From positions 235,538,001 to 235,602,000 of the forward strand of contig CM126203.1 of NCBI GenBank assembly GCA_052327205.1: a stretch of DNA of 64,000 nucleotides, given 5' to 3'. Made by a program: the position numbers and the translations under genes. Position 1 is the first letter of the stretch, and each line of letters begins with the position of its first letter. The notes below the pieces were generated by a model, which did not search any database, was not told where the DNA came from, and worked only from the letters and a program-made list of their open reading frames with translations. The stretch comes from Somniosus microcephalus (lineage: Eukaryota). Below, one piece after another: positions 3,481-49,605 of the stretch.

Positions 3481-6015
3481 AACATAGAAACATAGAAGAT
3501 AGGAGCATAGAAAATAGGAGCAGTAGGCCATTCGGCCCTTCAAGCCTGCTCCGCCATTCAATGCGATCATGGCTGATCATCCAAATTCAGTACCCGGTCC
3601 CTGCTTTCTCCCCATACCCCTTGATCCCCTTAGCCTTAAGAAATATATCCAACTCCTTCTTGAATATATTTAATGAACTGGCCTCCACCGCCTTCTGTGG
3701 TAGAGAGTTCCACAGGTTCACCACTCTCTGGGTGAATAAATTCCTCCTCATTTCTGTCCTAAATGGCTTACCCTTTATCCTTATACTGTGTCCCCTGGTT
3801 CTGGACTCCCCGACCATCGGGAACATCCTTCCTGCATCTAGTCTGTCCAGTCCTGTCAGAATTTTATAAGTTTCAATGAGATCACCTCTCATTCTTCTAA
3901 ACTCCAGCGAGTACAAGCCCAATCGACCCAATCTCTCCTCATAAGTCATTCCTGCCATCCCAGGTATCAGCCTGGTGAATCTTCGCTGAACTCCTTCCAT
4001 GGCAAGAACATCCTTCCTCAGATAAGGCGACCAAAACTGCACACAATACTCAAGGTGTGGTCTCACCAAGGCCCTGTACAACTGCAGCAAGACATCCTTG
4101 TTCCTGTACTCAAACCCTCTCGCTACGAAGGCCAACGTACCATTTGCCTTCTTAACCGCCTGCTGCACCTGCATGCTTACCTTCAGCGAATGGTGCACAA
4201 GGACACCCAGGTCTCGTTGCACTTCCCCTTCTCCCAATCTATTGCCATTTAGATAATAATCTGCCTTCCTGTTTTTGCCACCAAACTGGACAACCTCACA
4301 TTTATCCACATTATATTGCATCTGCCATGTTTCTGCCCAATCACCCAACATGTCCAAATCATCCTGCCGTTTCCCGACATCCTCCTCACAGCACACACGC
4401 CCACCCAGCTTTGTGTCGTCTGCAAATTTGGAGATATTACATCTAGTTCCCTTGTCTAGATCATTAATATATATTGTGAATAGCTGGGGTCCAAGGACCG
4501 ATCCCTGCGGTACCCCACTAGTTACTGCCTGTCACTCGGGAAAAGAGCCGTTTATTTCAACTCTTTGCTTTCTGTCTGCCAACCAGTTCTCTATCCAAGT
4601 CAATATCTTGCCCCCAATCCCATGTGCCTTAACTTTACACGCTAGTCTCTTATGCAGGACCTTATCGAAGGCCTTCTGAAAGTCCAGATACACCACATTC
4701 ACTGGTTCTCCCTTATCTATTTTACCAGTTACATCCTCAAAAAATTCCAGTAGATTAGTCAAGCACGATTTACCTTTCGTGAATCCATGTTGACTTTGTC
4801 CGATCCTGTCACTGTTTTCCAAGTGCTCTGCTATTACATCATTTATAATGGACTCTAGCATTTTCCCCACTACCGATGTCAGGCTTACCGGTCTGTAATT
4901 CCCCGTTTTCTCTCTACCACCTTTTTTGAATAGTGGGGTAACATTAGCAACCATCCAATCCATGGGTACTGTTCCAGATTCCATCGAATGTTGGAAGATG
5001 ATTAGCAATGCATCTACAGGAAACTGTGTGTTATCCGGCACCCACGGGACCGAGCTGCTGCCGTTGCCTCAAAACTTCCATACTCTCCAGAGTTAATGTT
5101 GAGAGATACGGAGATTCTTATCTCCGTATTTGACAACAAACACTGTTGCTTAGCAACAGCTTCTAAACACTCGGGTGTGGCCCTAAAGCTCTGTAGCTGA
5201 AGCTGTTGCTATAGCTACAGACCTTGCACAGCTTGACTGTTCAAACAAAGCAAAAAAAACAAACAAAAAGAATTAAAAACGGCTGCTGATTTTTGCCAGT
5301 GGCTCCAGATTGCCGGATAGCTCACCTCCGGATAGCACAAAGTTTCCTGTACTATTTCTCGGACCACTTCTTGAAGTACCCTAGGATGTAGATTATCAGG
5401 CCCTGGGGATTTATCGGCCTTCAATCCTATCAATTTCCCGAACACCATTTCCCTACAAATACGGATTTCTTTCAGTTCCTCCCTTTCATCAGACCCTATG
5501 TTCCCCGGCATCTCTGGAAGGTTATTTGTGTCCTCTTTTGTGAAGACAGAACCAAAATATGTACTTAGTTGGTCTGCCATTTCTTTGTTCCCCATTATAA
5601 ATACCCCTGATTCTGACTGCAAGGGAACTACGCTTGACTTCACCAATCTTTTTCTCTTCACATATCTATAAAAGCTTTTAGTCAGTTTTTATGTTCCCTG
5701 CAAACTTACTCTCATATTCTATTTTCCCCTTCTTAATTAATCCCTTTGTCCTCCTTTCTTGAATCCTAAATTGCTCCCAATCCTCAGGATTATTGCTTTT
5801 TCTGGCCAATTTATATGTCCTCTCCTTGGATCTTATGCTATCCCTAATTTCCCTTGTTAGCCACGGTTGAGTCACCTTTTTTGTTTTATTTTTATGCCAA
5901 ACTGGGATGAACAAATTCTGTAGTTCATCCATGCGCTCTTTGAAAGTTTGCCATTGTCTACCCACTGTCAACCCTTTGAGTGACATTCCCCAATTAATCC
6001 TACCCAACTCGCGCC
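3481..6015 (-). mobile_element. CR1 family B copy inserted antisense into the 1627-7165 copy
   Basis: 3' tail (CATAGAAA repeats) at 3481. RT ORFs 3587-4396, 4532-5041, 5215-5661. 5'-truncated at about 6015. Confidence 0.92.
5017..5349. mobile_element. 333-bp MITE, Tc1/mariner-pogo type
   Basis: TIRs CAGGAAACTGTGTGTTATCCGG / CCGGATAGCACAAAGTTTCCTG (2 mismatches). TA duplication at 5015-5016 and 5350-5351. Removing it restores GCATCTACTATTTCT as in the sister CR1 at about 45716. Confidence 0.88.
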
Positions 6016-7165
6016 TAGCGTGTAAAGTTAAGGCACATGGGATTGCGGGCAAGGTATTGACTTGGATAGAGAACTGGTTGGCAGACAGAAAGCAAAGAGT
6101 TGGAATAAACAGCTCTTTTTCCGAGTGGCAGGCAGTGACTAGTGGGGTACCGCAGGGATCGGTCCTTGGACCCCAGCTATTCACAATATATATTAATGAT
6201 CTGGACGGCGGAACTAGATGTAATATCTCCAAGTTTGCAGACGACACAAAGCTGGGTGGGCGTGTGTGCTGTGAGGAGGATGCCGAGAAACTCCAGTATG
6301 ATTTGGACAGGTTTGCTGATTGGGCAGAAGCATGGCAGATGCAATATAACATGGATAAATGTGAGGTTATCCACTTTGGTGTCACAAACAGGAAGGCAGA
6401 TTATTATCTGAATGGCAATAGATTGGGAGAAGGGGAAGTGCAACGAGACCTGGGTGTCCTTGTGCACCAGTCGTTGAAGGTAAACATGCAGGTGCAGCAG
6501 GCAGTTAAGAAGGCAAATGGTATGTTGCCCTTCGTAGCGAGAGGGTTTGAGTACAGGAACAAGGATGTCTTGCTGCAGTTGTACAGAGCCTTGGTGAGAC
6601 CACAGCTTGAGTAGTGTGTGCAGTTTTGGTCGCCTTATCTGAGGAAGGATGTTTTTGCCATGGAAGGAGTGCAGCTAAGATTCACCAGGCTGATACCTGG
6701 GATGGCAGGAATGACGTATGAGGAGAGATTGGGTCGATTGGGCTTGTACTCGCTGGAGTTTAGAAGAATGAGAGGGGTTCTCATTGAAACTTATAAAATT
6801 CTAACAGGACTAGACAGACTAGATGCAGGAAGGATGTTCCCGATGGTCGGGGAGTCCAGAACTAGGGGTTACAGTCTAAGGATAAGGGGTAAGACATTTA
6901 GGACAGAGATGAGGAGGAATTTCTTCACCCAGAGAGTGGTGAACCTGTGGAATTCTCTACCAAAGAAGGCAATAGAGGCCAATTCATTAAATAATATTCA
7001 AGACGGAGTTAGATATATTTCTTAAGGCTAAAGTGATCAAGGGATATGGAGAGAAAGCAGGAACAGGGTACTGAATTCGGATGATCAGCCATGATCTCAT
7101 TGAATGGCGGAGCAAGCTCGAGGGGCCGAATGGCCTACTCCTATCTTCTATATTTCTATGTTTCT
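6016..7165 (+). mobile_element. CR1 family B, right part (RT with FADD, 3' UTR and tail)
   Basis: ORFs 5907-6614 (sense part) and 6618-7025. Tail TTCTATGTTTCTA. GACAGG flanks both ends of the 1627-7165 insertion. Confidence 0.92.
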
Positions 7166-7596
7166 AGGACAGGTTGGAGAAACTGGATTTGTTTTCATTA
7201 GAGCAAAGGAGGTTGAAGGGTGATTTGATAGAGGTGTACAAGATTATGACGGGTTTGGATAGGCTAGATGGGGGAAAGGCTGTTCCCATTAGTTGATGGT
7301 ACAAGGACTATGGGACACAGCTTTAAGGTTTTGGGCAAGAGATACAGGGGGGGATGTGAGGGAAAACTTTTTTACGCAGAGTGGTGATGACCTGGAACTC
7401 GCTGCCGACAGAAGTGGTGGAAGCGGAGACACTCAATGTTTTCAAGGGGAGACTGGATAGGTACTTGAGGGAAATAAACTTGCAGGGCTATAGGGATAGA
7501 GCGGAGGAATGGGACTGACTGGATTGCTTTACAGAGAGCCAGCACGGACTCAATGGACCAAATGGCCTCCTTCTGTGCCGTTATGACTTTGACTCT
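7166..7596 (+). mobile_element. CR1 family A, 3' end
   Basis: Continues 1626 (compare uninterrupted TACAAGGACAGGTTGGAG at about 55333). CR1 3' tail ATGACTTTGACTCTA. Confidence 0.9.
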
Positions 7597-16531: not shown

Positions 16532-18223
16532 GGATATCGGGAAAAATAGGGACATTGGCAAAGGAGGAACTGACGCAAATCAATATCTCTAAGGATATGG
16601 TGTTAAGGAAGCTAAAGGGATTGAAGGTGGACAAATCCCCAGGGCCTGATAACATGCATCCTAGGGTACTGAAGGAGGTGGCCCTAGAGATAGCGGATGC
16701 ACTAAGGATGATTTTTCAGAATTCATTAGACTCGGGAACAGTGCCGATGGATTGGAGGGTAGCTAACGTTACCCCACTATTCAAAAAGGGGGGTAGGGAA
16801 AAAGCAGGTAATTACAGACCTGTAAGCCTTACATCAGTTGTGGGCAAAATGCTGGAGTCCATCATTAAGGATGAAATAGCGGAGCACTTAGCAAATGGGG
16901 ACAGGATAGGACAGAGTCAACATGGATTTACAAAGGGTAAATCGTGCTTGACTAATCTATTGGAATTTTTTGAGGGAGTAACTGGTAGAATAGATGGGGG
17001 AGAGCCAGTAGATGTGGTGTACCTGGACTTCCAAAAGGCCTTCGATAAGGTCCCACATAAAAGATTAGCATGGAAAATTGAGGCTCATGGGATAAAGGGG
17101 AAAGTTTTGGCGTGGATAGGGAACTGGCTGTCAGATAGAAAACAGAGAGTTGGAATAAACGGCTCATTTTCTGAATGGCAGGCAGTAACAAGTGGGGTAC
17201 CACAGGGATCTGTCCTGGGCCCCCAGCTGTTCACAATTTACATTAATGACCTGGATCAGGGAGTCGGATGCAGCATTTCCAAATTTGCAGACGACACTAA
17301 ACTAGGAGGGGGGGTGGGCTCAGAGGAAGAGACCAGGAAGCTCCAGAGCGATTTGGACAGACTGGGCGATTGGGCGGATAAATGGCAGATGCACTATAAT
17401 GTGGACAAGTGCGAAGTTATCCACCTTGGGTGCAGGAACGGGAGGGCAAATTATTATTTAAATGGCAATAGATTGGGAGAGGGGGAAGTACAGAGAGACC
17501 TGGGTGTTCTTGTACACCAGTCACTGAAGGCGAGCATGCAGGTGCAACAGGCGGTCAAGAAGGCAAACGGTATGCTGGCCTTCATAGCAAAAGGGTTAGA
17601 ATACAGGAACAGGGATACCTTGCTGCAGCTGTACAGGGCACTGGTGAGACCACACCTCGAGTACTGTGTACAGTTTTGGTCGCCTCATCTGAGGAAGGAT
17701 GTTCTTGCCATGGAGGGGGTGCAGCGGCGATTCACCAGGCTGATACCAGGAATGGCGGGAATGACCTATGAGGAGAGACTATGTAGTTTAGGGATGTACA
17801 CACTGGAGTTTAGAAGATTGAGAGGGGACCTCATAGAAGTGTATAAAATTCTGACAGGTCTAGACAGACTGGATGCAGAAGGAATGTTTCCCTTGGCGGG
17901 TGAGAACAGAACTAGAGGACATAATTTAAGGATAAGGGCTAAACCATTTAGGACAGAGATGAGGGGGAATTTCTTCACTCAGAGAGTGGTGAACCTGTGG
18001 AACTCATTGCCACAGAGGGCAGTGTACGCCAGCTCATTAAATATATTTAAGAGGGAATTAGATATATTTCTACGGGCAAAAGGGGTTAAGGGTTACGGAG
18101 AGAAGGCGGGGACGGGATACTGAATTAAAGGATCAGCCATGATCTCATCGAATGGCGGAGCAGGCACGAAGGGCCGAATGGCCTACTCCTGCTCCTATCT
18201 TCTATGTATCTATGTATGTATCT
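16532..18223 (+). mobile_element. Young 5'-truncated CR1 copy
   Basis: ATGATG TSD at 16526-16531 and 18224-18229. Intact 3' UTR and tail. Confidence 0.93.
16555..18123 (+). CDS. CR1 ORF2 reverse-transcriptase portion (522 aa, uninterrupted; endonuclease lost by 5' truncation)
   Basis: [29 protein letters not shown] and KFADDTKL motifs in one frame. Confidence 0.85.
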   Translation: MAKEELTQINISKDMVLRKLKGLKVDKSPGPDNMHPRVLKEVALEIADALRMIFQNSLDSGTVPMDWRVANVTPLFKKGGREKAGNYRPVSLTSVVGKMLESIIKDEIAEHLANGDRIGQSQHGFTKGKSCLTNLLEFFEGVTGRIDGGEPVDVVYLDFQKAFDKVPHKRLAWKIEAHGIKGKVLAWIGNWLSDRKQRVGINGSFSEWQAVTSGVPQGSVLGPQLFTIYINDLDQGVGCSISKFADDTKLGGGVGSEEETRKLQSDLDRLGDWADKWQMHYNVDKCEVIHLGCRNGRANYYLNGNRLGEGEVQRDLGVLVHQSLKASMQVQQAVKKANGMLAFIAKGLEYRNRDTLLQLYRALVRPHLEYCVQFWSPHLRKDVLAMEGVQRRFTRLIPGMAGMTYEERLCSLGMYTLEFRRLRGDLIEVYKILTGLDRLDAEGMFPLAGENRTRGHNLRIRAKPFRTEMRGNFFTQRVVNLWNSLPQRAVYASSLNIFKRELDIFLRAKGVKGYGEKAGTGY

Positions 18224-19244
18224 ATGATGTAGCTTCTACAGCTTTTTGGGGCAGCATATTCCATGGATCTACCTCCCTCCGAGTGAAGTAGTTCCTCCCC
18301 ATCTCAGTTTTGAAAGAGCGGCCCCTTATTCTAAGACTATGCCCCCTAGTTCTAGTTTCACCCATCATCGGGAACATCCTCCCCGCATCCACCCGATCCA
18401 ACCCCTTCACAATCTTATATGTTTCAATAAGATCGCCTCTCATTCTTCTGAACTCCAATGAGTAGAGTCCCAATCTACTCAACCTCTCCTCATATGTCCA
18501 TCCCCTCATCCCCGGGATTAACCGAGTGAACCTTCTTTGTACTGACTCGAGAGCAAGTATGTCCTTTCTTAAGTATGGACACCAAAACTGTACGCAGTAT
18601 TCCAGGTGCGGTCTCACCAATACCTTGTACAACTGAAGCAATACCTCCCTATTTTTATATTCTATCCCCCTAGCAATGAAAGCCAACATTCCATTGGCCT
18701 TCTTAATCACTTGCTGCACCTGCATACTAACCTTTTGAGTTTCGTGCACCAGGACCCCCAGATCCCTTTGTACTTCAGTACTTTCCAGTTTCTTGCCATT
18801 AAGATAATAACTTGCTCTACGATTTTTCCTGCCAAAGTGCATAACCTCACACTTTCCAGTATTGTATTCCATCTGCCAAATCTCTGCCCACTTACTTAGC
18901 CCGTCTATGTCCCCTTGCAGGTTTTTTATGTCCTGGATGGTGTCGAGCTTCTTGCGTGTTGTTGGAGCTGCACTCATCCAGGCAAGTGGAGAGTATTCCA
19001 TCACACTCCTTACTAGTGCCTTGTAGATGGTGGAAAGGCTTTGGGGAGTTAGGAGGTGAGACACTTGCCATAGAATACCCAGCCTCTGACCTGCTTTTGC
19101 AGCCACAGTATGTGTGTGACTGGTCCAGTTAAGTTTCAGGTTAATGGTGACTCCCAGGATGTTGATGGTGGGGGATTCGGTGATGGTAATGCCATTGAAT
19201 GTCAAGGGGAGGTGGCTGGATTCTCTCTTGTTGGAGATGGTTAT

Positions 19245-28682: not shown

Positions 28683-30654
28683 TTATAGTTCATGTGCTGA
28701 CAGTCCAAGTTAAATAATGTGAATATATCCATATTATCCATGCATTTAAATATTTTAAAAGACCTGAATCATGTTCATATTTTCTCTAATGAAAGCAAGC
28801 TCAGATTTGCCAATGTCGCCAGAACTTAATGCTCTAAATCTTAGAATCCTCATTAGCCATGTGTAAGCCTAAATATTGTCAGTAGGTTAGTCAATCATTT
28901 AAATGGAACAAGTTATTTTAGCAAGTGATATAATAATGCATATGCTACTTTCATACACTTTACAGCAGGCTGAACAGGATTACATACAGCTTTTAAGCTA
29001 TACTTACTTTAAAAAAGTACCCATTTTTCTCCCAAAACTATGCCATGGAGTAGCACCTTTAGTTCCCCATGCAGGGAGTATTTGCAGACTCATGGCACTA
29101 TTATAAATCTAGGCAATCTGGTTTGAGACCAGTACCTGTTCAAAGCAATTTTAGGTTGATGTCCCAGTTATACTGCCTATTTTGCATCACTTTCTAGCAT
29201 GTAAAACAAAGCTCATCCCAGTACATAAGTACATACAAGAACACATGCCCAGAACTCCAACTATCTGTCCAAACAAGTTACATTTTTAATGTTCGCAAAG
29301 AGACAATGTGACAAGCAACTCTTTGCTAAAATTAAAAGTTAGAAGGAAGTTTTAAAAATTCATAAGCAGTTGGTTGGACCGTCTAGGAACTCGCTAAAGT
29401 TTGCTTTCCACCAGTTGAAGTGGTACTGTAGCACAGGAATTAAGGCACAGGGATAAAATTCCAAAGTTGTACACTTTGGCTGGACTTTTACCGGCGCTGA
29501 GAGGGTGGGATCGGAGGCAGGTCAGCTGTCAAAATAGAAAAGATTGACAGCGGGTCAGGAACCCGCTGTCAAGTCACCTCCACACGAGTCTCCCAGGTGT
29601 CAGGTCTGTCAGCGCTGAACAGACCCAACACCAAGCGGTAGGGGAGACAATTTAGATGATTAAATGCATTAAGAGGCAATTAAGTCTTATTTTAAGCTTA
29701 CTTTTAGATTTTTAGAGTTTGCCAACGGCTTCCCTGCTGCTTGGGACTCACATCAGGTAAGGAGGTCGAGTTTGTGTCAGCAGGGGATGATTTACTAACT
29801 TGACAGCGACAAATGGTCTATAAAAGCTCCCATTCCATAGGTTTTCACTTTCCAAGGTTAGAAGCTCTTGCTTACTATATTTGGAAGACAGATTGAGGTT
29901 TATGCAGCTTGCAAATGTTTGGAGCAAACTCTCAATCCAGTGTCACCTCATTGGAGCAACCCCTCTCACCATTGACAGATCGCTTCCGTCATCTCAACCT
30001 CACCTGCCATCTATTCCATCAGCATGAAAAAATCTCACCTTGGTCCTCAGAATCCCACCACGATCAGCCCCAACACCAGCAGCACCAACCTTCTCCGCAA
30101 TCACCTGATGCTGCACAGGACAGAGGGCTTCAGCACCCGAGCACATTGCTGCCCGGGAGGCCAGATTTACTTCACTTGACGCTGTACACCCTGGCTGACA
30201 CAATGCACACCACCCCACACCAACAACATAAAGCATCCCTACAATGCTCGAGCCATTCCTTTCACAAACATTACCATTGCTGGGGGGTATCCTTATGTCT
30301 CACCATTCACTGCAACTCACTAAGCCACTGCCAAAGATGCACACAAATCTGTCCAAAAACAGTGTTGAAAATAAAAGTTTCAATGTTTGATAGCACATTA
30401 ACAGAAACATCACATGAACATTGGCTAAACCACCCAATTGCCTACCCTTGTCTGTTAGTTGGTATGCTTGCAGTAGAATGAATGAGAGTGAGTGTGAGGG
30501 TTGGCTAGTGAGATGGGGAAGTGATAATGTAGATAGAGAGGGATGGGTGGAGCTGCAAGGGAAGTTGGTGTAAGGATGTGCAGGAGTAGGGTAGGGAAGG
30601 CAAAGTGATGGGGATGCGATATGTGGCACAGCAGGAGGAGGTTGAGTGTGATGT

Positions 30655-33092
30655 GGAGATGCCGGTGTTGGACTGGGGTGGACAAATGTAGAAAGTCACA
30701 CAACACCAGGTTATAGTCCAACAGCTTTATTTGAAATCACAAATATGGAAACAGCGCTCCGATAGCTTAAGAAAAGATATACTTGCTCTGGAGGCGGTTC
30801 AGAGAAGGTTCACTCGGTTGATTCCGGAGATGAGGGGGTTGACGTATGAGGAAAGGTTGAGTAGGTTGGGCCTCTACTCATTGGAGTTCAGAAGAACAAG
30901 AGGCGATCTTATCGAAACATATAAGATTGTGAAGGGGCTTGATCGGGTGGATGCGGTGAGGATGTTTCCACTGATGGGCGAGACTAGAACTAGGGGGCAT
31001 TATCTTAAAATAAGGGGCTGCCCTTTCAAAACTGAGATGAGGAGAAACTTCTTCACTCAGAGGGTAGTAAATCTATGGAATTTGCTACCCCAGAGAGCTG
31101 TGGAAGCTGCAACATCAAATAAATTTAAAACGGAGATAGACAGTTTCCTAGCAGATACGGGAATTAGGGGTTACGGGGAGAGGGCAGGGAAGTGGAAGTG
31201 AGTCTAGATTCGGATCAGCCATGATCCTATTGAATGGCAGAGCAGGCCCGAGGGGCCGTATGGCCTACTCCTGCTACTATTTCTTATGTTCTTAGTCAGG
31301 TGAAGTGAAGAGAAGCATACAAGCACAGCATATATAGTCAGAGAAAACTGCCAGATGATTACAGGTAATCTTTCTAACTGCCATTTATCACACCTCGGCA
31401 GAGAGATAATCACAGCAATCAAAGGTGTGAATGGTGTCCAAACAGGTCAGCCAGGAAAACATTACATCAAAGAACAATGAGGTGGGGTCACAAGGGGTCA
31501 AATGTTGCAGATGCTGGGGTCTGTATGAAAAACAGAAAAAAAAACATTGCTTGAAATCACAGCAGGTCCAGCCGCATCGGTGCAGAGAGAACAAGCCAAC
31601 GACGACTCGAGTCTGGATGACTCTACGGCAGGTGGGGTTACATGTAGCGTGACATGAACCCAAGATCCCGGTTGAGGCCGTCCTCACGAGTGCGGAACTT
31701 GGCTATCAGTTTCTGCTCGACGATTTTGCGTTGTCGTGTGTCTCGAAGGCCGCCTTGGGGAATGCTTACCCGAAGATCGGAGGCTGAATGTCCTTGACTG
31801 CTGAAGTGTTCCCCGACTGGGAGGGAACACTCCTGCCTGGCGATTGTTGTGCGGTGTCCGTTCATCCGTTGTCGCAGTGTCTGCATGGTCTCGCCGATGT
31901 ACCATGCTCCGGGGCATCCTTTCCTGCAACGTATGAGATAGACAACGTTGGCCAAGTCACATGAGTATGTACCATGTACCTGGTGAGTGGTGTCCTCACG
32001 TGTGATGATGGTATCTGTGTTGATGATCTGGCATGTCTTGCAGAGGTTGCCGTGGCAGGGTTGTGTGGTGGCGTGGTCGCTGTTCTCCTGAAATCTGGGT
32101 AATTTGCTGCGAACGATGGTCTGTTTGAGGTTAGGCGGCTGTTTGAAGGCGAGTAGTGGAGGCGTGGGGATGGCCTTAGCGAGGTGTTCGTCGTCGTCGA
32201 TGACATGTTGAAGGCTGCGGAGAACATGGCGTAGTTTCTCCGCTCCGGGGAAGTACTGGACGACGAAGGGTACTCTGTTGGTTGTGTCCCGTGGTTGTCT
32301 TCTGAGGAGGTCTATGCGATTTTTCGCTGTGGCCCGTCGGAACTGTTGATCGACATCTCGTTCTTAAGAGGGCGTCTTTCAGCATCTGTAGGTGTCCATC
32401 GCGTTCCTCCTCGTCTGAGCAGATCCTGTGTATTCGCAGGGCTTGTCCATAGGGGATGGCTTCTTTAACGTAGCTAGGGTGGAAGCTGGAGAAGTGGAAC
32501 ATCGTGAGGTTGTCCGTGGGCTTGCGGTAGAGTGAAGTGCTGAAGTGTCCGTCTTTGATGGAGATTCGTGTGTCCAAGAATGAAACCGATTCTGAGGAGT
32601 AGTCCATGGTGAGTTTGATGGTGGGATGGAACTTGTTGATGTCATCGTGTAGACTTTTCAGTGATCCTTCGCCGTGGGTCCATAGGAAGAAAATATCGAT
32701 GTATCTGGTGTATAGCGTTGGTTGGAGGTCCTGTGCAGCGAAGTCTTGCTCGAACTTGTGCATGAAGATGTTGGTGTATTGGGGTGTGAATTTGGTCCCC
32801 ATGGCTGTTCCGTGTGTTTGGGTAAAGAACTGGTTGTCGAAGGTGAAGACATTGTGGTCAAGGATGAAGCGGATGAGTTGTAGGATGGCGTCTGGAGATT
32901 GGCTGTTGGTGTTGAGTACTGTGGCTGTCGCAGCGATGCCGTCATCGTGGGGGATACTGGTGTAGAGTGCCGAGACGTCCATCGTGGCGAGGAGTGTTCC
33001 TGGTGCAACTGGTCCGTGGGTGCTGAGTTTCTGTAAGAAGTCTGTAGTGTCGCGACAGAAGCTGGGGGTTCCCTGTACAATGGGTTTCAGGA
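30655..33092 (-). mobile_element. Penelope-like element, left arm (RT, GIY-YIG and 3' pLTR)
   Basis: ORF 32176-32982 (MDVSALYTSIP, GTAMGT) and 31638-31955 (NVVYLIRC...WYIGET...RMNGHR). Confidence 0.93.
30767..31293 (+). mobile_element. CR1 3' fragment inserted in the left PLE arm
   Basis: ORF 30731-31201 (LRKDILALEAVQRRF...). Tail TTCTTATGTTCTT. Absent from the right arm. Confidence 0.92.
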
Positions 33093-33263
33093 CATCCTAT
33101 CGTATCAGGCAACGGAACCCTGTGCGACAACCTCTCTGGATACATCGAGGGCATCCTGAAACTCATCGTACAGGGAACCCCCAGCTTCTCTCGCGACACT
33201 ACAGACTTCTTACAGAAACTCAGCACCCACGGACCAGTTGAACCAGGAACACTTCTCACCACG

Positions 33264-34626
33264 ATGGACGTCTCGGCACTCTACACCAGTATCCCCCGCG
33301 ATGACGGCATCGCTGCGACAGGCTCAGTACTCAAGACCAACAGCAGCCAATCTCCAGACACCATCCTACAACTCATCCGCTTCATCCTTGACCACAATGT
33401 GTTCACCTTCGACAACCAGTTCTTCACCCAAACACACGGAACAGCCATGGGGACCAAATTCACACCCCAATACGCCAACATCTTCATGCACAAGTTCGAG
33501 CAAGACTTCTTCGCTGCACAGGACCTCCAACCAACACTATACACCAGATACATCGACGACATTTTCTTCCTATGGACCCACGGCGAAGGATCACTGAAAA
33601 GACTACACGATGACATCAACAAGTTCCATCCCACCATCAAACTCACCATGGACTACTCCTCAGAATCAGTTTCATTCTTGGACATACAAATCTCCATCAA
33701 AGACGGATACCTCAGCACTCCACTCTACCGCAAGCCCACGGACAACCTCACGATGCTCCACTTCTCCAGCTTCCACCCTAACCACGTTAAAGAAGCCATC
33801 CCCTATGGAAAAGCCCTGCGAATACACAGGATCTGCTCAGACGAGGAGGAACGCGATGGACACCTACAGACGCTGAAAGACGCCCTCGTAAGAACGGGAT
33901 TTGACGAGTCGAGCATCCTTCGACAGTTCCAACAGGCCACAGCGAAAAATCGCATAGACCTCCTCAGAAGACAAACATGGGACACAACCAACAGAGTATC
34001 CTTCGTCATCCAGTACTTCCCCAGAGCGGAGAAACTACGCCATGTTCTCCGCAGCCTTCAACATGTCATCGACGACGACGAACACCTCGCTAAGGCCATC
34101 CCCACGCCTCCACTACTCGCCTTCAAACAGCCGCCTAACCTCAAACAGACCATCGTTCGCAGCAAATTACCCAGATTTCAGGAGAACAGCGACCACGCCA
34201 CCACACAACCCTGCCACGGCAACCTCTGCAAGACATGCCAGATCATCAACACAGATACCATCATCACACGTGAGGACGCCACCCACCAGGTACACATAGT
34301 CATGTGGCTCGGCCAATGTTGTCTACCTCATATGTTGCAGGAAAGGATGCCCCGGAGCATGGTACATCGGCGAGACCATGCAGACACTGCGACAACGGAT
34401 GAACGGACACCGCGCGACAACAGCCAGGCAGGAGTGTTCCCTCCCAGTTGGGGAACACTTCAGCCGTCAAGGACATTCAGCCTCCGATCTTCGGGTAAGC
34501 ATTCTCCAAGGCGGCCTTCGAGGCACACGACAACGCAAAATCGTCGAGCAGAAACGGACAGCCAAGTTCCGCACTCGTGAGGACAGCCTCAACCGGGATC
34601 TTGGATTCATGTCACGCTACATGTAA
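33264..34626 (+). pseudogene. PLE reverse transcriptase / GIY-YIG endonuclease ORF (5'-truncated, frameshifted)
   Basis: ORF 33264-34580 (RYIDDIF, SFLD, LYRKPTD, CKTC) plus 34378-34626. Confidence 0.88.
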
Positions 34627-34646
34627 CCCCACCTGCCGTAGAGTCA

Positions 34647-34991
34647 CAGAATCACAGAAACCCCACAGTGCAGATAGAGGCCATTTTGGCCCATCGAGCC
34701 TGCACCGACACATATCCCACCCGATCCCCGTAACCCCTACACCAACACATATCCCACCCTATCCCCGTAACCCCACGTATTTAATCCCCCTAACACTAAG
34801 GGTCAATTTATCATAGCCAATCAACCTAACTCGCACATCTTTGGACTGTGGGAGGAAACCGGAGCACCCGGAGGAAACCCACGCAAACACGGGGAGAATG
34901 TGCAAACTCCACACAGACAGTCGCCCGAGGCCGGATTCGAACCCGGGTCCCTGGCGCTGTGAGGCAACAGTGCTAACCACTATGCCACCGT
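34647..34991 (-). mobile_element. HE1-type V-SINE with CR1-derived tail
   Basis: tRNA head (GGTGGCATAGTGGTTAGC, GGTTCGAATCC). V-domain TGTGTGGAGTTTGCACATTCTCCCCGTG...GGGTTTCCTCCGGGTGCTCCGGTTTCCTCCCACAGTCCAAAGA. CR1-like tail. Confidence 0.92.
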
Positions 34992-35290
34992 GACTCGAGT
35001 CGTCGTTGGCTTGTTCTCTCTGCACCGATGCGGCTGGACCTGCTGTGATTTCCAGCAAAGTTTTTTTTTCTGTTTTTCATACAGACCCCAGCATCTGCAA
35101 CATTTGACCCCTTGTGACCCCACCTCATTGTTCTTTGATGTAATGTTTTCCTGACTGACCTGTTTGGACACCATTCACACCTTTGATTGCTGTGATTATC
35201 TCTCTGCCGAGGTGTGATAAAGGGCAGTTAGAAAGATTACCTGTAATCATCTGGCAGTTTTCAGACTGTGCACGTAAGCTTCTCTTCACT

Positions 35291-35327
35291 TCACTTGACG
35301 AAGGAGCAGCGCTCCGAAAGCTTGTGA
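35291..35327 (+). ncRNA. Minimal type-I hammerhead ribozyme motif in the PLE pLTR (C3>U variant)
   Basis: TCAC-TTGACGA-A-GGAGC-AGC-GCTCC-GAAA-GC-TT-GTGA: stem I TCAC/GTGA, stem II GGAGC/GCTCC, palindromic AAGCTT in place of stem III. Confidence 0.7.
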
Positions 35328-36689
35328 TTTCAAATAAAGCTGTTGGACTATAACCTGGTGTTGTGTGATTTCCTACATTTGAGGTTGTGGGGGGCTTGGC
35401 AGTAATGTTTTGTGATCTACTGAGATCAATGAAAGGTTTGCGCCACTGCAGCCTGGTCCTCCTGATGACATCCCTGCTTGTGCCCTCCTGTGTAATGTGC
35501 AACCAGGCTGTGTTGGTCTCCCAGGGAGGTGTCTTCCACCCATTTGAAGGGAAGAGAACCTCCCTGCGTGCGGTTTATGGAGGGAGTAATGGGAGAGCCT
35601 GGGTGCAGCCATGCACATTTGTGTAGTGCTCGTCAGTGTTTGCAGCACCTCAATGCTGTAGATCACTGACAGCAGAACTGTCAAAATCAATTTGGACATG
35701 GGTCTCTAAGGAAACCGGCTGACGACACATCATCAAATGATGTCATCAGACCCGCTTCCTTTTAATTGGCCGGGAAACACGCTGGGCGGGCTTAACAAGC
35801 CCAATCAACTTAAAAGCACTTGGAGAGCACGGGCTAGAGCAGGCAGTGGGCTGGGACTGCGCTACCGACCCTGGCCGCTCTGGGCCTACCTCGGTCGGCG
35901 AAATCGCGGCCTTTATGTCAATGCAAAGTGGTTCCAGCTTTACATCAATGCAAATTTGTAATATAACGTGAAAGGGTACGATCATTCTTGTTCCCTATTT
36001 GCCTCCTCGGAGCCAAGTATACAGCAATATTGGCAGAGGCCTAAAAGTAGGCATTTGCCTGTTTTTATATTTAAAGTACAGCATACGAGCTACCAAAGGG
36101 GGCAGCTAAAATAAAATACACAAGAAAACACTACAGCAAGCAGTAAATCAATATTGTTTATTCTACATCCTCAGCAGCCCTAATATCTACTTTAATAGCA
36201 AAGTCTTCACACTACTTCAACAAACTGCAACATTAAATAAAGTTAAAATTATTAATATTGTATCTTACAAACAGGATATCCTAGTAAAACTTATAACCAT
36301 TCTAAAGTATTGATCACTTGCATCAATGACTTTGTAGGGGCATACGGAAGAGCCCCGCCTCACAAGACCAGCTCGGATATCTGCAGCTAAGAGCGGGACC
36401 TAGTGTACTATCCATGCTGAGTTTGCAGCTGCTCTGGCAGATTCCAGCCAACTAACAAGAGGAAATTCAACAGAAAGAATGCAGATTTTCAGAGTCAAGT
36501 GCTTGCCAGAAGAGTTAATTTTTCTTTTAATTGATTGTGGAGAAACACAGTTGTTCTTCATCCTCTACATACTACTGGAATGAGCTGACCCTGATCACCA
36601 GTACAGATATGGGAGAGGAATAATGAGACATTGACAAATTTGAGCTTGCTTTCATTACAAGAAATATTGAGGCAGGGCAGTTACTGCAA

Positions 36690-40155: not shown

Positions 40156-41170
40156 ACATAAGAACATAAGAAGTAGGAGCAGGAGTAGGCCATACGGCCC
40201 CTCGGGCCTGCTCCGTCATTCAATAGGATCATGGCTGATCCGAATCTAGACTCACGTCCACTTCCCTGCCCTCTCCCCTTATCTGCTAGGAAACTGTCTA
40301 TCTCCATTTTAAATTTATTTAATGTTGCAGCTTCCACAGCTCTCTGGGGTAGCAAATTCCATAGATTTACTACCCTCCGAGTGAAGAAGTTTCTCCTCAT
40401 CTCAGTTTTGAAAGGGCAGCCCTTATTCTAAGATTATGCCTCTAGTTCTAGTCTCACCCATCAGTGGAAACATCCTCACCGCATCCACCCGATCAAACCC
40501 CCTCACAATCTTATATGTTTCGATAAGATCGCCTCTCATTCTTCTGAACTCCAATGAGTAGAGGCCCAACCTACTCAACCTTTCCTCATACGTCAACCCC
40601 CTCATCTCTGGAATCAACCGAGTGAACCTTCTCTGAACCGCCTCGAGAGCAAGTATATCTTTTCTTAAATATGGAAACCAAAACTGCACGCAGTATTCCA
40701 GGTGTGGCCTCACCAATACCCTGTATAACTGCAGCAAGACTTCCTTGTTTTTATACTCCATCCCCCTTGCAATAAAAGCCAAGATTCCATTGGCCTTCCT
40801 GGTCACCTGCTGCACCTGCATACTAACTTTTTGTGTTTCATGCACCAGGACCCCCAGATCCCTTTGTACTGTAGCACTTTGCAATTTCTCTCCATTTAGA
40901 AAGTAACTTGCTCTTTGATTTTTTCCTGCCAAAGTGCATAACCTCACACTTTCCAACATTATATTCCATTTGCCAAATCTCTGCCCACTCACTTAACCTA
41001 TGTCCTTTTGCAGGTTTTTTATGTCCTCCTCACTCACTGCTTTCCCTCCCATCTTTGTATCGCCGGCAAACTTTATGTTGCACTCGGTCCCTTCCTCCAA
41101 ATCGTTAATATGGAATCTCTTCAGTCTGAAAAATTCCCATTTATTGCTGCCCTCTGTTTTTAAGCCAATT
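40156..41170 (-). mobile_element. CR1 3' fragment
   Basis: ORFs 40423-40992 and 40119-40400. Tail CATAAGAACATAAG. Confidence 0.9.
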
Positions 41171-41378
41171 TATTATCCAGCTACTTCCTATTCTGTAAAC
41201 TCATCTATTAATCATAGAAGTGGAACCTTGCCAAAATCTAAGTGAATGCTATCAAGTTCAGTTAGCCTGCCATCTCATAAGTAATGTCTTTTAAAAACTC
41301 TTGGCAAATTGGTTATATATCAGTTCCCTTTGCTGGATTCATGCTGACTGTTCTTCACAAACTATGCTTTTACAACTA

Positions 41379-41847
41379 TGTAAGAAATCATGAATTGGAA
41401 GAAATAACGAGATAAAAAAGTCTCTTCAGACTGGTGTTAGAATAACTGGATAGATGCTTAGAATTTGCTTATGTTCTTGGTTCCCTGCAGATATTGAAAC
41501 ATTCTGCACCGTGGCGGTGACCTTGTTTCCAGATAGCTATCTGCTGTTTGTGTGCTAGAAACTGTATCTTTGATAATCTACCCTAGGCCCACCCCTAAAG
41601 AAAGAGTAAAAGAGATATCTAAAGAGCTTTTAGCACAAATGGTGAAAGGAAGGGAAGAGCTGTTCGTGCACGCCAGCCGTCTGTCCAATCGGGACCGACA
41701 CCAGCTGCTTGTCATGGTCGTATGTCTACTATGTCGATCTTGATTGCGTGTTGTACTTAACTTAAACTGCCGCTCTTTAATAAAAAGCCTTACAACTCCC
41801 AAGACCCTTTGGTTAATCTGTGTGTGACTTGTGATCCAAATCTTACA
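41379..41847 (+). mobile_element. Solo LTR (469 bp)
   Basis: Perfect 7-bp terminal inverted repeat TGTAAGA/TCTTACA. 4-bp TSD ACTA. AATAAA at about 41779. Confidence 0.85.
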
Positions 41848-41949
41848 ACTAAATCATTCTTAACCCCTTTTGAATAACGGGTCTCCTTTGATGTGTTCAG
41901 TGTATCTCTGCCTACTGTTGCTGTAAATTTTAGTTAATGGGCTGGATTT

Positions 41950-43070
41950 AAGGCACATGGGATTGGGGGCAAGGTATTGTCTTGGATAGAGAACTGGTTG
42001 GCAGATAGAAAGCAAAGAGTTGGAATAAACGGGTCTTTTTCCAGAGTGGCAGGCAGTGACTAGTGGGGTACCGCAGGGATCGGTCCTTGGACCCCAGCTA
42101 TTCACAATATATATTAATGATCTAGACAAGGGAACTAGATGTAATATCTCCAAATTTGCAGACGACACAAAGCTGGGCGGGCGTGTGTGCTGTGAGGAGG
42201 ATGCCGAGAAACTCCAGTATGATTTGGACAGGTTTGCCGATTGGGCAGAAGCATGGCAGATGCAATATAACATGGATAAATGTGAGGTTATCCACTTTGG
42301 TGTCAAAAACAGGAATGCAGATTATCTAAATGGCAATAGATTGGGAGAAGGGGAAGTGCAACGAGACCTGGGTGTCCTCGTGCACCAGTCGCTGAAAGTA
42401 AGCATGCAGGTGCAGCAGGCGGTTAAGAAGGCAAATGGTATGTTGGCCTTCGTAGCGAGAGGGTTTGAGTACAGGAACAAGGATGTCTTGCTGCAGTTGT
42501 ACAGGGCCTTGGTGAGACCACACCTTGAGTATTGTGTGCAGTTTTGGTCGCCTTATCTGAGGAAGGATGTTCTTGCCATGGAAGGAGTTCAGCGAAGATT
42601 CACCAGGCTGATACCTGGGATGGCAGGAATGACGTATGAGGAGAGATTAGGCTTGTACTCGCTGGAGTTTAGAAGAATGAGAGGGGATCTCATTGAAACT
42701 TATAAAATTCTAACAGAAGACAGACTAGATGCTGGAAGGATGTTCCCGATGGTCGGGGAGTCCAGAACCAGGGGTCACAGTCTAAGGATAAGGGGTAAGC
42801 CATTTAGGACAGAGATGAGGAGGAATTTCTTCACCCAGAGAGTGGTGAACATGTGGAATTCTCTGCCAAAGAAGGCAGTAGAGGCCAATTCATTAAATAT
42901 ATTCAAGAAGGAGTTGGATATATTTCTTAAGGCTAAAGGGATCAAGGGATATGGAGAGAAGGCAGGAAGAGGGTACTGAATTTGGACGATCAGCCATGAC
43001 CTCATTGAATGGCGGAGCAGGCTCGAGGGGCTGAATGGCCTACTCCTGCTCCTATCTTCTATGTTTCTAC
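41950..43070 (+). mobile_element. CR1 family B 3' copy inserted at the Harbinger left TIR
   Basis: ORF 42056-42979 (307 aa, FADD). TSD GATTT (41945-41949, 43071-43075). Confidence 0.92.
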
Positions 43071-43086
43071 GATTTTGCGGAGGGTT

Positions 43087-43108
43087 GGGGGGGGGGGGGG
43101 GGGGGGGG
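43087..43108 (+). repeat. Poly-G run (22 nt)
   Basis: Directly visible. Confidence 0.9.
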
Positions 43109-44289
43109 AAAGACAGTGGGCGCAATCGGTGATGGATCAGGTGGGAAAGTGTTTTTTTCCCCCAAGTGGGTCGGGACCCCGCTGTGAACCCGCCGCCACA
43201 CGCCTTTACCAAATGTCGGGTCCGTCAGCGCTGAGCAGACCCGACACGCAGTGGCGGGGGAGGCGATTAAAATCATTACTGGCTTGTTTACAGCCAATTA
43301 TCAATGGTTATTTCCCAGCTTTTTAGATTTGACAGGTCGTCCATCGGTTTCCTGCTGTGTCTGGACCTCGTCTGTGAAGCAGAGGCGGGAGGTCAGTGGC
43401 CATTGAATCAGCTGATGAGTTGACAGCTTCAAATGTCAAGTCAAAGCTCCCAGCTGATTGAGAAATGTTCCCTTAACCAGTAGCTTCAGTAAACTGCATT
43501 TCCACTACAGATTCAGGATGCTGCAAGTCTCCATCCAGTCTGACATCATTACCTCTCCCACCATGGACAGATCACTTCTGTCGTCTCTATTTCACCTGCC
43601 ATCTATTCCAACAGCGTGGGTTCCCCTGAAACACTCTCACCTTGGTCATCAGAATCCCACCACGATCAGCCCCAACAACACCAACCTTCTCCACGATCAA
43701 CTGATGCCGAGTTCTGTGCAGCATCAGCACCCGAGTACACTGCTGCCCGGGAGGCCAAGGATGGCCTCACCATGGCTTGATTTACTTCACTTGACACTGT
43801 ACACTCTGGCTGCCATATGCCAGGTTGACACCACCCCACACCAACACCATAAAGCATCCCTACAATGCCCAAGCCATTTCTTTCACTCATCACCATTGCA
43901 GGGGGTACCGTTATGTCTCACCATTCACTGCAACTCACTATGCCACTTCCAAAGGTGCACACAAATCTGTCCAAGAACGAAAAGTGTTGAAAAAAAGATT
44001 TCAATGTTTGACACATTAACAGAAACTGTACATGAACATTGCATAAAAGACCCAAGTATCTACCCTTGTGTGTTGTTAGTTGGTATGATTGCACTAGGAT
44101 GAGGGTGAGTGCGAGGGGTGGCTAGTGAGATGGGGATGTGATAATGTAGATAGAGAGTGATGGGTGGAGGTGCAAGGTAAGTTGGTGTGAGTAAGGATAT
44201 GCAGGAGTAGATACATAGAAGATAGGAGCAGGAGTAGGCCATTCAAGCCTGCTCCACCATTCAATGACATCATGGCTGATCATCCAAAT

Positions 44290-47153
44290 TCAGTACCCGG
44301 TCCCTGCCTTCTCCCCATATCCCTTGATCCCTTTAGCCTTAAGAAATATATCCAACTCTTTCTTGAATATACTTAATGAACTGGCCTCCACCGCCCTCTG
44401 TGGCAGAGAATTCCACAGGTTCACCACTCTCTGGGTGAAGAAATTCCTCCTCATTTCAGTCCTAAATGGCTTACCCCTTATCCTTAGACTATGACCCCTG
44501 GTTCTGGACTCCCCAGCCATCAGAAACATCCTTCCTGTATCTAGTCTGTCCAGGCCTGACAGAATTTTATAGGTTTCGAGGAGATCCCCTCTCAATCTTC
44601 TAAACTCCAGTGAGTATAAGCCCAATCGACACAATCTCTCCTCATACGTCATTCCTGCCATCCCAGGTATCAGCCTGGTGAATCTTCGCTGCACTCCTTC
44701 CATGGCAAGAACGTCCTTCCTCAGGTAAGGCGACCAAAACTGCCCACAATACTCAAGGTGTGGTCTCACCAAGGCCCTGTACAACTGCAGTAAGACATCC
44801 TTGTTCTTGTACTCGAACCCTCTTGCTACGAAGGCCAACATACCATTTGCCTTCTTAACCGCCTGCTGCACCTGCATGCTTACCTTCAGCGACTGGTGTA
44901 CAAGAACACCCAGGTCTCTTTGCACTTCCCCTTTTCCCAATCTATTGCCATTCAAATAATAATCTGCCTTCCTGTTTTTGCCACCAAAGTGGATAACCTC
45001 ACATTTATCCACATTAAAGTGCATTTGCCATGTTTCTGCCCAATCACCCAACCTGTCCAAATCGTGCTGGAGTTTCATGACATCCTCCTCACAGCATACC
45101 CTCCCCCCCCAGCTTTGTGTCGTCTGCAAATTTGTAGATATTACATCCAATTCCCTCGTCCAGATCATTAATATATATTGTGAACAGCTGGGGTCCTAGG
45201 ACCGATCCTTGCGGAACCCACTAGTCACTGCCTGCCACTCGGAAAACGACCCGTTTATTCCAACTCTTTGCTTTCTGTCCGCCAACCAGTTCTCTATCCA
45301 AGTCAATACCTTGCCCCCAATCCCATGTGCCTTAATTTTGCACGCCAACCTCTTATGCGGGACCTTATCGAAAGCCTTCTGAAAGTCCAAATACACCACA
45401 TCCACTGGTTCTCCCTTATCTATTATACCCGTTACATCCTCAAAAAATTCCAGTAGATTAGTCAAGCATGATTTACCTTTTGTAAATCCATGTTCACTTT
45501 GTCCGATCCAGTCACTGCTTTCCAAGTGCTCTGCTATTACATCTTTTATAATGGACTCTAGCATTTTCCCCACTACCCATGTCAAGCTTACCGGTCTATA
45601 ATTCCCCGCCTTTTCTCTACCACCTTTTTTTTTGAATAGTGGGGTAACATTAGCCACCCGCCAATCCATGGGTACCGTTCCAGAGTCTATCGAGTTCTGG
45701 AAGATGACCAGCAATGCATCTACTATTTCTAGGTCCACTTCCTTAAGTACCCTGGGATGTAGATTATCAGGCCCTGGGGATTTATCGGCCTTCAGTCCCA
45801 TCAATTTTCCTAACACCATTTCCCTACAAATACTGATTTCTTTCAGTTCCACCCTTTCATCAGACCCTATGTTCCCCGGCATCTCTGGGAGGTTATTTGT
45901 GTCCTCCTTTGTGAAGACAGAACCAAATATGTATTTAGTTGGTCTGCCATTTCTTTGTTCCCCATTATAAATTCCCCCGATTCTGACTGCAAGGGACCTA
46001 CGCTTGACTTCACCAATCTTTTTCTCTTCACATATCTATAAAAGCTTTTACAGTCAGTTTTTATGTTCTCTGCAAGCTTACTCTCATATTCTATTTTCCC
46101 TTTCTTAATTAATCCCTTTGTCCTCCTTTGTTAAATCCTAAACTGCTCCCAATCCTCAGGATTATTGCTTTTTCTGGCCAATTTATATGCCCTCTCCTTG
46201 GACCTTATGCTATCCCTAATTTCCCTTGTTAGCCACGGTTGGGTCACCTTTTTTGTTTTATTTTTATGCCAAACTGGGATGAACAAATTCTGTAGTTCAT
46301 CCATTCGGTCTTTGAATGTTTGCCATTGCCTATCCACCGTCAACCCTTTGAGTGCCATTCCCCAATCAATCCTACCCAACTCGCTCCTCAGACCATCATA
46401 GTTTCCTTTATTTAAATTGAGGACCCTAGTCTCCGAGTCAACTACTTCATTTTCCATCTTAAATGAAGAATTCGATAATATTATGATCGCTCCGACCCAA
46501 GGGGCCTCTTACAACAAGATTGCTAATTAATCCTTTCTCGTTACATAATACCCAGTCTAAGATGGCCTGATCTCTGGTTGGTTCCTCGACATATTGGTCC
46601 TGGATACCATCCCGTAAACACTCCAGGAATTCCTCTTCCACAGTATTGTTACTCATTTGCTTGGCCCAATCTGTATGTAGATTAAAGTCACCCACGATGA
46701 CTGCTGTGCGCTTATTGCACGCTTCTTTAATTTCTCTTTTAATGCCATCCCCAACCTCCGCCTTACTGTTTGGAGGTCTATAAACCACTCCCACTAACTT
46801 TTTTTCCCCTTAGTATTTCTCAATTCTACCCATACAGATTCCACCTCATCAGAGCTAATATCCTTCATTACAATTGTGTTAATCCCTTCTTTAACCAGTA
46901 ATGCTACCCCACCTCCCTTTCCTTTTTGCCTATCTTTCCTGAATATCGAATACCCCTGGATGTTGAGTTCCCAGTCCTGGCCTTCCTTGAGCCACGTTTC
47001 CGTAATCCCAACCAAATCGTATTTGTTTACTTCTATTTGCGCAGCCAATTCATCCACCTTATTACAAATGCTCCTCGCATTAAGACACAAAGCCTTCAGG
47101 CTTGTTTTTTTAACACTCTTAGACCTATTAGAATTATTATTTACTGTGGCCAT
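44290..47153 (-). pseudogene. CR1 ORF2 (APE endonuclease and RT), frameshifted
   Basis: ORFs 46794-47153, 46459-46794, 46131-46457, 45196-45882 and 44290-45168. Confidence 0.9.
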
Positions 47154-47279
47154 GTTTGATTTAAACCGTTGATTTCTCTGACTGCCACTTTTGTTTTTCT
47201 CCTTCCTATCTTTTGCTTTTATCCTCGTTTCCCTTTCCTCTGTCTCCCTGCTCAGGTTCCCAACCCCCTGCCATTTTAG

Positions 47280-48556: not shown

Positions 48557-49605
48557 GTAGGGTAGGAAAGGCAGAGTGATGGGGATGTGATGAGGGGCAC
48601 AGCAGGATGAGATGGAGTGTGGTTTTGTACTAACATTTCATGATCTACTGAGATCATTCAAATGTTTGCGCCACTGCACCCAGGTCCTCCTGACCACATT
48701 CCTTCTTGTGCCCTCCTCTGCAATCTGCAACCAGGCTGTGTTGATCTCCTGGGGAGGAGTCTTCCGCCCATTGAAAGGGAAGTGAACCTCCCTGCATGCT
48801 GTGACTCCCTCCATAAGCATATGGAGAGTCATGGGAGAGCCTGGGTGCAGCCCTGCACCTCTGTGCAGTGCGCGTCAGTGTTTGTAGAACACTGACAGCA
48901 CAAATGTCAAAATAAAGTTAGCCATGGTACCTTTAAGTAAACCAGCTGATGACGAGTCATTAAATGTCACCAGACCCACTTCCTCTAATTGTCCGGGAAA
49001 CGTGCTGGGCGGACTTAACAAGCCCAATCACGGTAAATTCATTTCAGAGGCCGGGACGGAGGCAGCAGTGGAGTCGGGACCCTCCACTGACGTCGCCCGC
49101 CACGGACCCACCGAGGTTCGTTAAATCCAGCCCAATGTCTCAGTCCTAAATATTAATACAAGTTGAAAACAATGGTGATGGAGAAAATAATAAAACTGAA
49201 GAATGACAAATTTCCAGGAGCTGATGGTTTCCACCCCAAGGTATTAAAAGGTGAGGAAATTGCAGATGCTTTAGTCATGGGGGGTTAAATTGATTAGCTC
49301 CCGAAAACGGGCGAGGGGATTGCGATGCGCAATTAACCCGCGCCCGTTGAGTGGAATGCAGGCAGCACGGCAACTTCGTGCTGCCTGCTCATTATAATGA
49401 TTTCTTCATACAGCCAGTGCTCCCCGTGCTGTTCTTTGGCTGTACGCATCAGCAGGGGCCTAATATCGTTACTAACTTGCAATACTTAAAGCTAGCCTGC
49501 ACTACTTAAAGCTAGCATGCACCTCTTAAAGTGGAGGTACATTGTGGCTGGAACAGGTGCTGGGAGTCGTTCTACAAGTGAATCTGACCTGGGAAAGAGT
49601 GAAGA

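Follow-up and report, generated by a model that had tools for sequence, protein, structure and literature searches.

Head-to-head Penelope-like palindromes in Somniosus microcephalus: one insertion, two arms and a single tail

Penelope-like elements (PLEs) that encode an endonuclease can leave two-armed copies behind, a layout described in PMC3846280, PMC8557442 and PMC8969392. In the insertions of PMC8557442, and in Adineta vaga Pen2a (PMC3846280), an inverted, 5'-truncated copy stands head to head with its partner and a single tail is present. Both papers explain this layout by self-priming or by nuclease resolution, and PMC8557442 names the formation of tandem and inverted PLE structures as unexplained. 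Here, we analysed such a structure in 64,000 nucleotides of Somniosus microcephalus DNA (GCA_052327205.1, contig CM126203.1, positions 235,538,001 to 235,602,000), taken from a genome of 6.4 Gb. We refer to this whole stretch as the window and use its own numbering, which starts at 1. Near its middle lies a 4.7-kb mirror-image stretch, a PLE whose two arms are arranged head to head. The locus resembles the insertions of PMC8557442 and PMC3846280 in its inverted, 5'-truncated head-to-head copy, its one tail, the single duplication round the whole unit and the short palindrome or overlap at the axis, and its family shares with them the partial tandems. The main difference is in the inverted partner, which consists of 1.9 kb of coding sequence at our locus and of a 0.2-kb pseudo-long terminal repeat (pLTR) in these two papers.

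A second system for comparison is PAc, a Poseidon-type PLE of the anole that has been studied in vitro (PMC11167929). Its enzyme, predicted to be a dimer, cuts and extends both target strands, and reverse transcription starts at two adjacent sites on the RNA that bound the tail. The family described here, as we read it, shares with PAc the starts at the tail borders, the cutting and extension of both strands and the hammerhead ribozyme near the start of the open reading frame (ORF). The tail lies inside the ORF in PAc, whereas it ends at the start codon in our family. The parts of PMC11167929 that were covered give no explanation of inverted copies.

The inverted arms reported in an earlier note, which had been made from the letters of this stretch, are real: self-BLAST recovered them with E = 0, and they meet at 33092/33154. 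As the reference we used L019, a natural full-length family copy in which 3137 nt separate the first base of the start codon from the last base of the tail, both included. The left arm (30649..33092, minus strand) is a 5'-truncated, tailed PLE that corresponds to reference positions 1199-3137, while the right arm (33090..35381, plus strand), also 5'-truncated, corresponds to positions 1135-3103 and has no tail. The 5'-most part of the right arm forms the spacer (33093..33153, plus strand), which is 61 nt of reverse transcriptase (RT) sequence where about 60 bp had been claimed, and the GGA microhomology proposed for the junction was confirmed at 33090..33092, where three nucleotides are compatible with both arms. 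Without the later inserts the left arm measures 1892 nt and the right arm 1947 nt including the spacer, which bears out the estimate of about 1880 bp; translation likewise bore out that both ORF remnants point outward. Of the palindrome limits given in the note, the right one was correct, but the left arm extends to 30649, which is 34 nt past the equivalent end of the right arm. This extension (30649..30682, minus strand) is a tail of 34-37 nt that is present on the left arm only and runs as far as the start codon of the following unit. The two arms differ by 75 substitutions at 1836 aligned positions, a divergence of 4.08%. The right arm has 51 private substitutions and the left arm 26 (P 0.006). 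That arms without a tail mutate more, having been exposed as displaced single strands, was rejected for the family as a whole, where private changes numbered 633 versus 617.

Several lines of evidence support a single insertion event as the source of both arms, in agreement with the earlier note. A degraded target-site duplication of 11-12 bp, absent from that note's list, flanks the two arms. Its left copy (30637..30648, plus strand) carries one change relative to the common empty-site form, and its right copy (35380..35391, plus strand), whose first two bases could equally belong to the end of the element, carries two. The insertion interrupts an older host repeat. The left part of this repeat (29550..30648) is about 74-85% identical to paralogues (BLAST to L078, L084, L095 and L101), and the right part (35380..35900) is contiguous with the left one in paralogues whose site is empty. 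The 12-bp site is single in 30/30 of these empty-site paralogues and doubled at our locus. In addition, the two arms share five rare non-CpG alleles where 0.35 were expected; about 255 other segments lack two of the five altogether, and any other arm shares at most three. Among 100 arms in a FastTree phylogeny, the two arms are sisters with a support of 0.917, and 6 of 7 two-arm loci have sister arms, L127 being the exception.

It is very improbable that the palindrome arose from two independent insertions, from a later inverted duplication or from an assembly artefact. Such origins could be suspected from raw distances, which the earlier note had proposed as a check: 31 of 116 comparisons with family copies were as close as the two arms are to each other or closer, and the best family hits to the arms are 96-98% identical. 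The raw-distance comparison is not valid here, because each family copy decays on its own. Also in favour of separate origins are the twofold private changes of the right arm and the fact that the junction is spanned by the assembly only and by no independent read: among the contigs listed from five sequencing runs, all of them short, none bridges it, and opposite-strand joints are also expected from ordinary copies. By contrast, both arms are enclosed by one duplication, they carry exclusive alleles and a sister position in the tree, and the same geometry recurs at 162 other loci. A read-through artefact is ruled out by the 4% divergence and by the later inserts, which differ between the arms. 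No second copy of the exact junction occurred among the 40 that were scored of at least 1220 candidates. The palindrome is genuine; it goes back to one insertion, now dead, and its kind is known.

The recurrence was quantified in a family sample made up of the best 40 hits per query, with at least 86 to at least 2547 candidates for each element query; this sample is not random and gives no genome-wide rate. From the top hits 276 element loci were taken, of which 253 were kept, after 9/186 and 14/90 had been dropped as duplicates or as the window itself. Overall, 162 of the 253 loci (115/177 and 47/76) showed a head-to-head junction, and the two-armed layout is ordinary among the sampled copies. 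The outer end was unresolved at 34 of 167 junctions, which left 133, and for the counts of arm offsets these were reduced to 114 pairs by leaving out tandem read-through units and four exceptions. Both arms reached at least 1 kb in 30 of the 114 pairs, and in L027, L068 and L181 the arms equal or exceed those of the studied locus in length. The arms of the long palindromes measure about 2.6 kb (L027), 2.0 kb (L068), 2.2 kb (L181), 1.7 kb (L307), 1.4 kb (L308) and 1.3 kb (L309), and in L309 both arms start at the identical position. At seven loci (L032, L040, L125, L144, L151, L198 and L213) the head-to-head joint contains additional sequence from another part of the element, as if the RT had jumped template before joining. 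The copies L239-L246, on contigs C40, C43 and C51, are 94-99.7% alike over a region that includes 3 kb of flanking DNA, and represent a segmental amplification.

Globally, the tail obeyed a strict rule in this sample. Exactly one end was tailed at 129 of the 133 resolved junctions (99/102, 24/24 and 6/7), whereas PMC8557442 and PMC3846280 describe the 30-40-bp tail as 'optional' or 'often' one-sided. Among the 114 pairs the tail was on the shorter arm in 60 and on the longer arm in 53, with equal arms in one. A target duplication was recognised in 91 of 100 units, with a mode of 12-13 bp, and both ends cluster within a few bases. The AT content was raised inside the target (67% versus 49%), and the bias outside it was mirror-symmetric, with C at position -7 in 22 and 20 of 44 and G at position -3 in 21 and 18 of 44. 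Certain sites in other repeats were used repeatedly with the tail on either side, as for the 13-bp duplication of L044 and L196, which is reversed in L135. Altogether, four groups shared a site or lay within a few bases of each other (L027/L068/L125/L190; L044/L196/L135; L003/L069; L052/L157). These are independent insertions with different 5' ends, they comprise 11 of 100 units, and three of the groups contain both orientations. The repeated use points to a real sequence preference of the nuclease.

The paired arms were also compared by sequence. In each of 72 pairs, the two arms diverged less from one another than loci do on average (2.6% versus 5.0%), and rare alleles were shared within pairs 243 times, where 20 were expected. 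Eight linked sites at reference positions 1657-3095 divide the family into two subfamilies, of which the studied locus belongs to the older one; their arm-arm divergences are 3.1% and 2.4%, with wide overlap (age difference P 0.006). None of 93 pairs was a clear subfamily mixture, 55 and 34 being of the same subfamily and four ambiguous. Paired arms are thereby shown to share a common template.

We consider it likely that the two arms are two separate complementary DNAs (cDNAs), each primed from one 3' end of a staggered target cut. The nuclease of the element would nick the two target strands 12-13 nt apart; one target end would prime at the end of the RNA tail and the other about 37 nt upstream, probably within one RNA molecule or at least within transcripts of one source copy. 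The two cDNAs would end independently, and their ends would anneal over a few bases (GGA at the studied locus) before host repair fills in the rest. The near-equal arms of our locus would then probably be due to chance, as two stops that fell 64 nt apart; a long interspersed element (LINE) and a short interspersed element (SINE) arrived afterwards, one in each arm. On both flanks, the strand that extends a target 3' end into the insertion is the antisense strand of the element, which fits a cDNA primed by each nick. The model also draws on PAc, where both strands are extended and RT starts at the two tail borders (PMC11167929). The simplest reason for the strict one-sidedness of the tail would be that one RNA served both primings, although sequence cannot prove this.

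The proposal is related to the twin priming of LINE-1. In twin priming, the RNA is copied from primers at both ends of the cut target, and the two cDNAs are joined head to head within one duplication. There, the position of the second primer inside the RNA is a matter of chance, and the two pieces have no sequence in common. In the family described here, by contrast, the proposed start sites are fixed, with 37 nt between them, and the 3' part is therefore present twice. Twin priming of LINE-1 is named in bioRxiv 10.1101/2024.12.14.628481. No proposal that PLE inversions are primed from both target ends was found in the literature searched, which left most subscription papers, including the 2005/2006 PLE reviews, outside its scope. 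The two-armed structure itself is already published.

The earlier note had argued that arms of this length imply fold-back or self-primed synthesis. This was not supported: the placement of the tail is contrary to it, and near-equal arms are not significantly in excess. If the whole hairpin came from one cDNA, the copied arm should hold nothing that is absent from its template arm. The spacer-bearing arm would be the template, but it is the other arm that is tailed, so pure fold-back cannot give the studied locus; about half of the family also has the tail on the would-be copied arm. Self-priming on an antisense template is the published reading of palindromic junctions (PMC3846280), and in Craig 2021 (PMC8557442) the tail is put down to an intermediate that the nuclease resolves. 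The common template and the short overlap at the axis agree with this account, as do the 61-nt spacer and the 3-nt overlap of our locus, but the same range of overlaps occurs in unequal pairs. The account further requires that a nuclease later trims one tail, on either strand at random, to reach 60 versus 53, it would have deprived the target-primed, spacer-bearing arm at our locus of its own start, and it would make loops of 1-2.7 kb the norm. It is also at odds with the in-vitro finding that RT begins at each border of the tail (PMC11167929). On balance, we judge an origin by fold-back from a single cDNA improbable.

Near-equal arms occurred in 11 of the 114 pairs, compared with 7.5 expected by permutation (P 0.12). 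Since this lies within chance, the 64-nt offset at the studied locus needs no special cause. An intermediate scheme would have both ends primed, with one cDNA short and tailed, while the long right-arm cDNA folds at GGA, copies itself and anneals to the short one. It accounts for the tail on the arm without the spacer, for the small loop, for the alleles shared between the arms and for short inverted pieces on single arms, and near-equal pairs among those with long arms showed a mild excess in its favour (5/30 versus 2.4 expected, P 0.08). The scheme is nevertheless unnecessary, as near-equal pairs overall stay within chance (P 0.12-0.36). Moreover, a junction overlap of at least 2 nt is similarly frequent in near-equal pairs (57%) and unequal pairs (53%), and in most pairs one arm exceeds the other by hundreds to thousands of bases. 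We therefore regard the intermediate scheme as unlikely.

Several points weigh against priming from both target ends, among them the mild excess just given. The four exceptions to the one-tail rule, all of them compound or interrupted, are L170, L207 and L210, which have no tail, and L211, which has two. Five single arms (L042 at 6369-6410, L075, L171, L223 and L304) carry an inverted 5' piece of 37-265 nt with no duplication found; they may be true short fold-backs or have a deleted second arm, and the counts leave room for a small fold-back class within the family. The age difference between the subfamilies weakens the argument from the absence of mixed pairs. A lockstep rule, by which the tail-less arm would be slightly longer in near-equal pairs, first held in 10/10 cases (one-sided permutation P 0.0008), four unresolved partners and one tail-less pair included. 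It failed in the third batch (two positive, four negative, one zero) and on the resolved pairs (7/10, P 0.34), and was dropped. Furthermore, no difference in start site between the strands was seen in vitro, so strict one-sidedness is not predicted by PMC11167929, and PAc comes from another clade (Poseidon) than the family here. One RNA and two RNAs of one source would be indistinguishable in the resulting copies. Finally, the model is built from sequence rather than from intermediates, and the sequence would also be compatible with fold-back for most of one arm.

The domains place the element among described PLEs. RVT_1 scored above the Pfam cut-off in both arms, and a GIY-YIG match downstream of the RT was found in the right-arm copy only (E 8.6e-4; 20 bits, below the cut-off of 22.6). 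Together with the motif seen by eye, this gives an RT followed by GIY-YIG in one ORF, which is broken and 5'-truncated here. The RT remnant of the left arm is frameshifted and lacks one Asp of the YxDD motif, and the frame of the right arm is shifted ahead of the nuclease by a 5-nt deletion. In the left-arm translation, the linker and the remnant of the GIY-YIG nuclease occupy 31641..32100 (minus strand), two Cys lie between the GIY-like and the YIG-like motif, and the linker motif C-X4-C-X2-C is present in both arms. A CX2-5CxxC linker upstream of GIY-YIG is given in PMC8557442 for Neptune and Nematis and not for Penelope and Poseidon; the motif in both arms matches the former types and departs from the latter. 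The pLTRs that arise from partial tandems are present in L005, L011, L019, L033 and other family copies, not at the studied locus, and the one-end tail of 30-40 nt of endonuclease-bearing PLEs was found here on the left arm only. Judged by these motifs, the element is an endonuclease-bearing PLE with a C-terminal GIY-YIG domain. It resembles the Neptune/Nematis-type PLEs of PMC8557442 in the order of RT and GIY-YIG, the linker and the two Cys in the GIY-YIG core, the likeness being one of motifs; unlike them, the family here targets AT-rich sites in other repeats rather than microsatellites.

The earlier note had described the outer ends as ribozyme-bearing. This holds for remnants only, since both hammerheads are broken. 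The family motif near the element 3' end would form a minimal hammerhead, with the core boxes, a bulged base before helix II and palindromic bases replacing helix III. In these features it agrees with the minimal hammerheads of metazoan PLEs (PMC4209133), from which the studied locus differs in that both of its copies are damaged. The left core is split by the LINE insertion: a 5' remnant with one strand of stem I and the first five core bases remains at 31295..31303 (minus strand), and an inverted, degraded piece with helix II and GAAA lies at 30747..30768 (plus strand), at the 5' joint of the LINE. At this joint (30743-30768) an inverted 22-nt piece of the target stands where a duplication would be expected. 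The right copy (35291..35327, plus strand) retains the minimal motif without an Rfam match, and its core position C3 is changed to T at 35295, a position that is C in 305/306 aligned segments from other loci. An intact core with stems I and II is present in the family motif and in neither arm, the fold z-score is about 0, and an Rfam scan detected no hammerhead. A C3U change cripples hammerhead cleavage. Cleavage is abolished by C3G in PMC11167929. At the axis of the palindrome, Rfam gave only a mir-642-like hairpin below the gathering score, because the palindrome itself yields such scores.

The later inserts reported in each arm are present, and their labels, CR1 and SINE, rest on sequence likeness. 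The insert of the left arm (30769..31294, plus strand), located in the hammerhead core, is a LINE 3' fragment with 93% identity to window positions 40159-40668, which we take to be CR1-like. The one in the right arm (34647..34991, minus strand) is a short interspersed insert, presumably a SINE, in which ARAGORN found no tRNA. LINE copies are numerous at 1619-7170, 16538-18934 and 40158-47212; they show 70-94% likeness to one another, and several are inverted in part. The LINE copies of the window contain RT and AP-endonuclease domains, and zf-CCHC with RT occurs at 62025-63617. The host repeat that received the palindrome is abundant, with at least 4790 candidates and a further stretch in the window at 48557-49030. 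A frame in one of its paralogues matches Myb_DNA-bind_5 (Myb/SANT-like), and the repeat is presumably Harbinger-related. A scan of 18 of the 36 window ORFs of at least 150 aa showed domains of transposons only and no host exon, although short exons would escape it.

As to the suggestion that a transcript of the locus would fold into a silencing hairpin, the arms contain 27 perfect runs of at least 21 bp, 1342 bp in all. The hairpin would be strong if the locus were transcribed, and many loci would have the same potential. As the 5' part of the element is missing from both arms, such a transcript would have to start outside. In Drosophila, inverted repeats of Penelope give rise to small interfering RNAs, which were mapped to the inverted parts (PMC3681739). 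The rearranged Penelope copies described there contain long PLE inverted repeats that could give double-stranded RNA, as at our locus. With this precedent, the idea of silencing by double-stranded RNA is not new.

The studied locus itself is a dead repeat, while the family sample bears on the unexplained formation of PLE structures. Sharp predictions for the existing in-vitro system follow from three findings: the strict one-tail rule, the freedom of the tail to be on the shorter or the longer arm, and the use of one cut in both orientations. More broadly, PLEs may insert by a fixed two-primer process, a proposition that seems to us evenly balanced: a dimer would make a mirror-symmetric cut of 12-13 nt and use one RNA at set points 37 nt apart, hence a single tail, either arm being the longer one, and routine kilobase-sized coding palindromes that could seed silencing of the family. 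If this is true, PLEs, unlike LINEs, would prime both target ends at programmed sites on the RNA, and they would fill genomes with long self-complementary copies.

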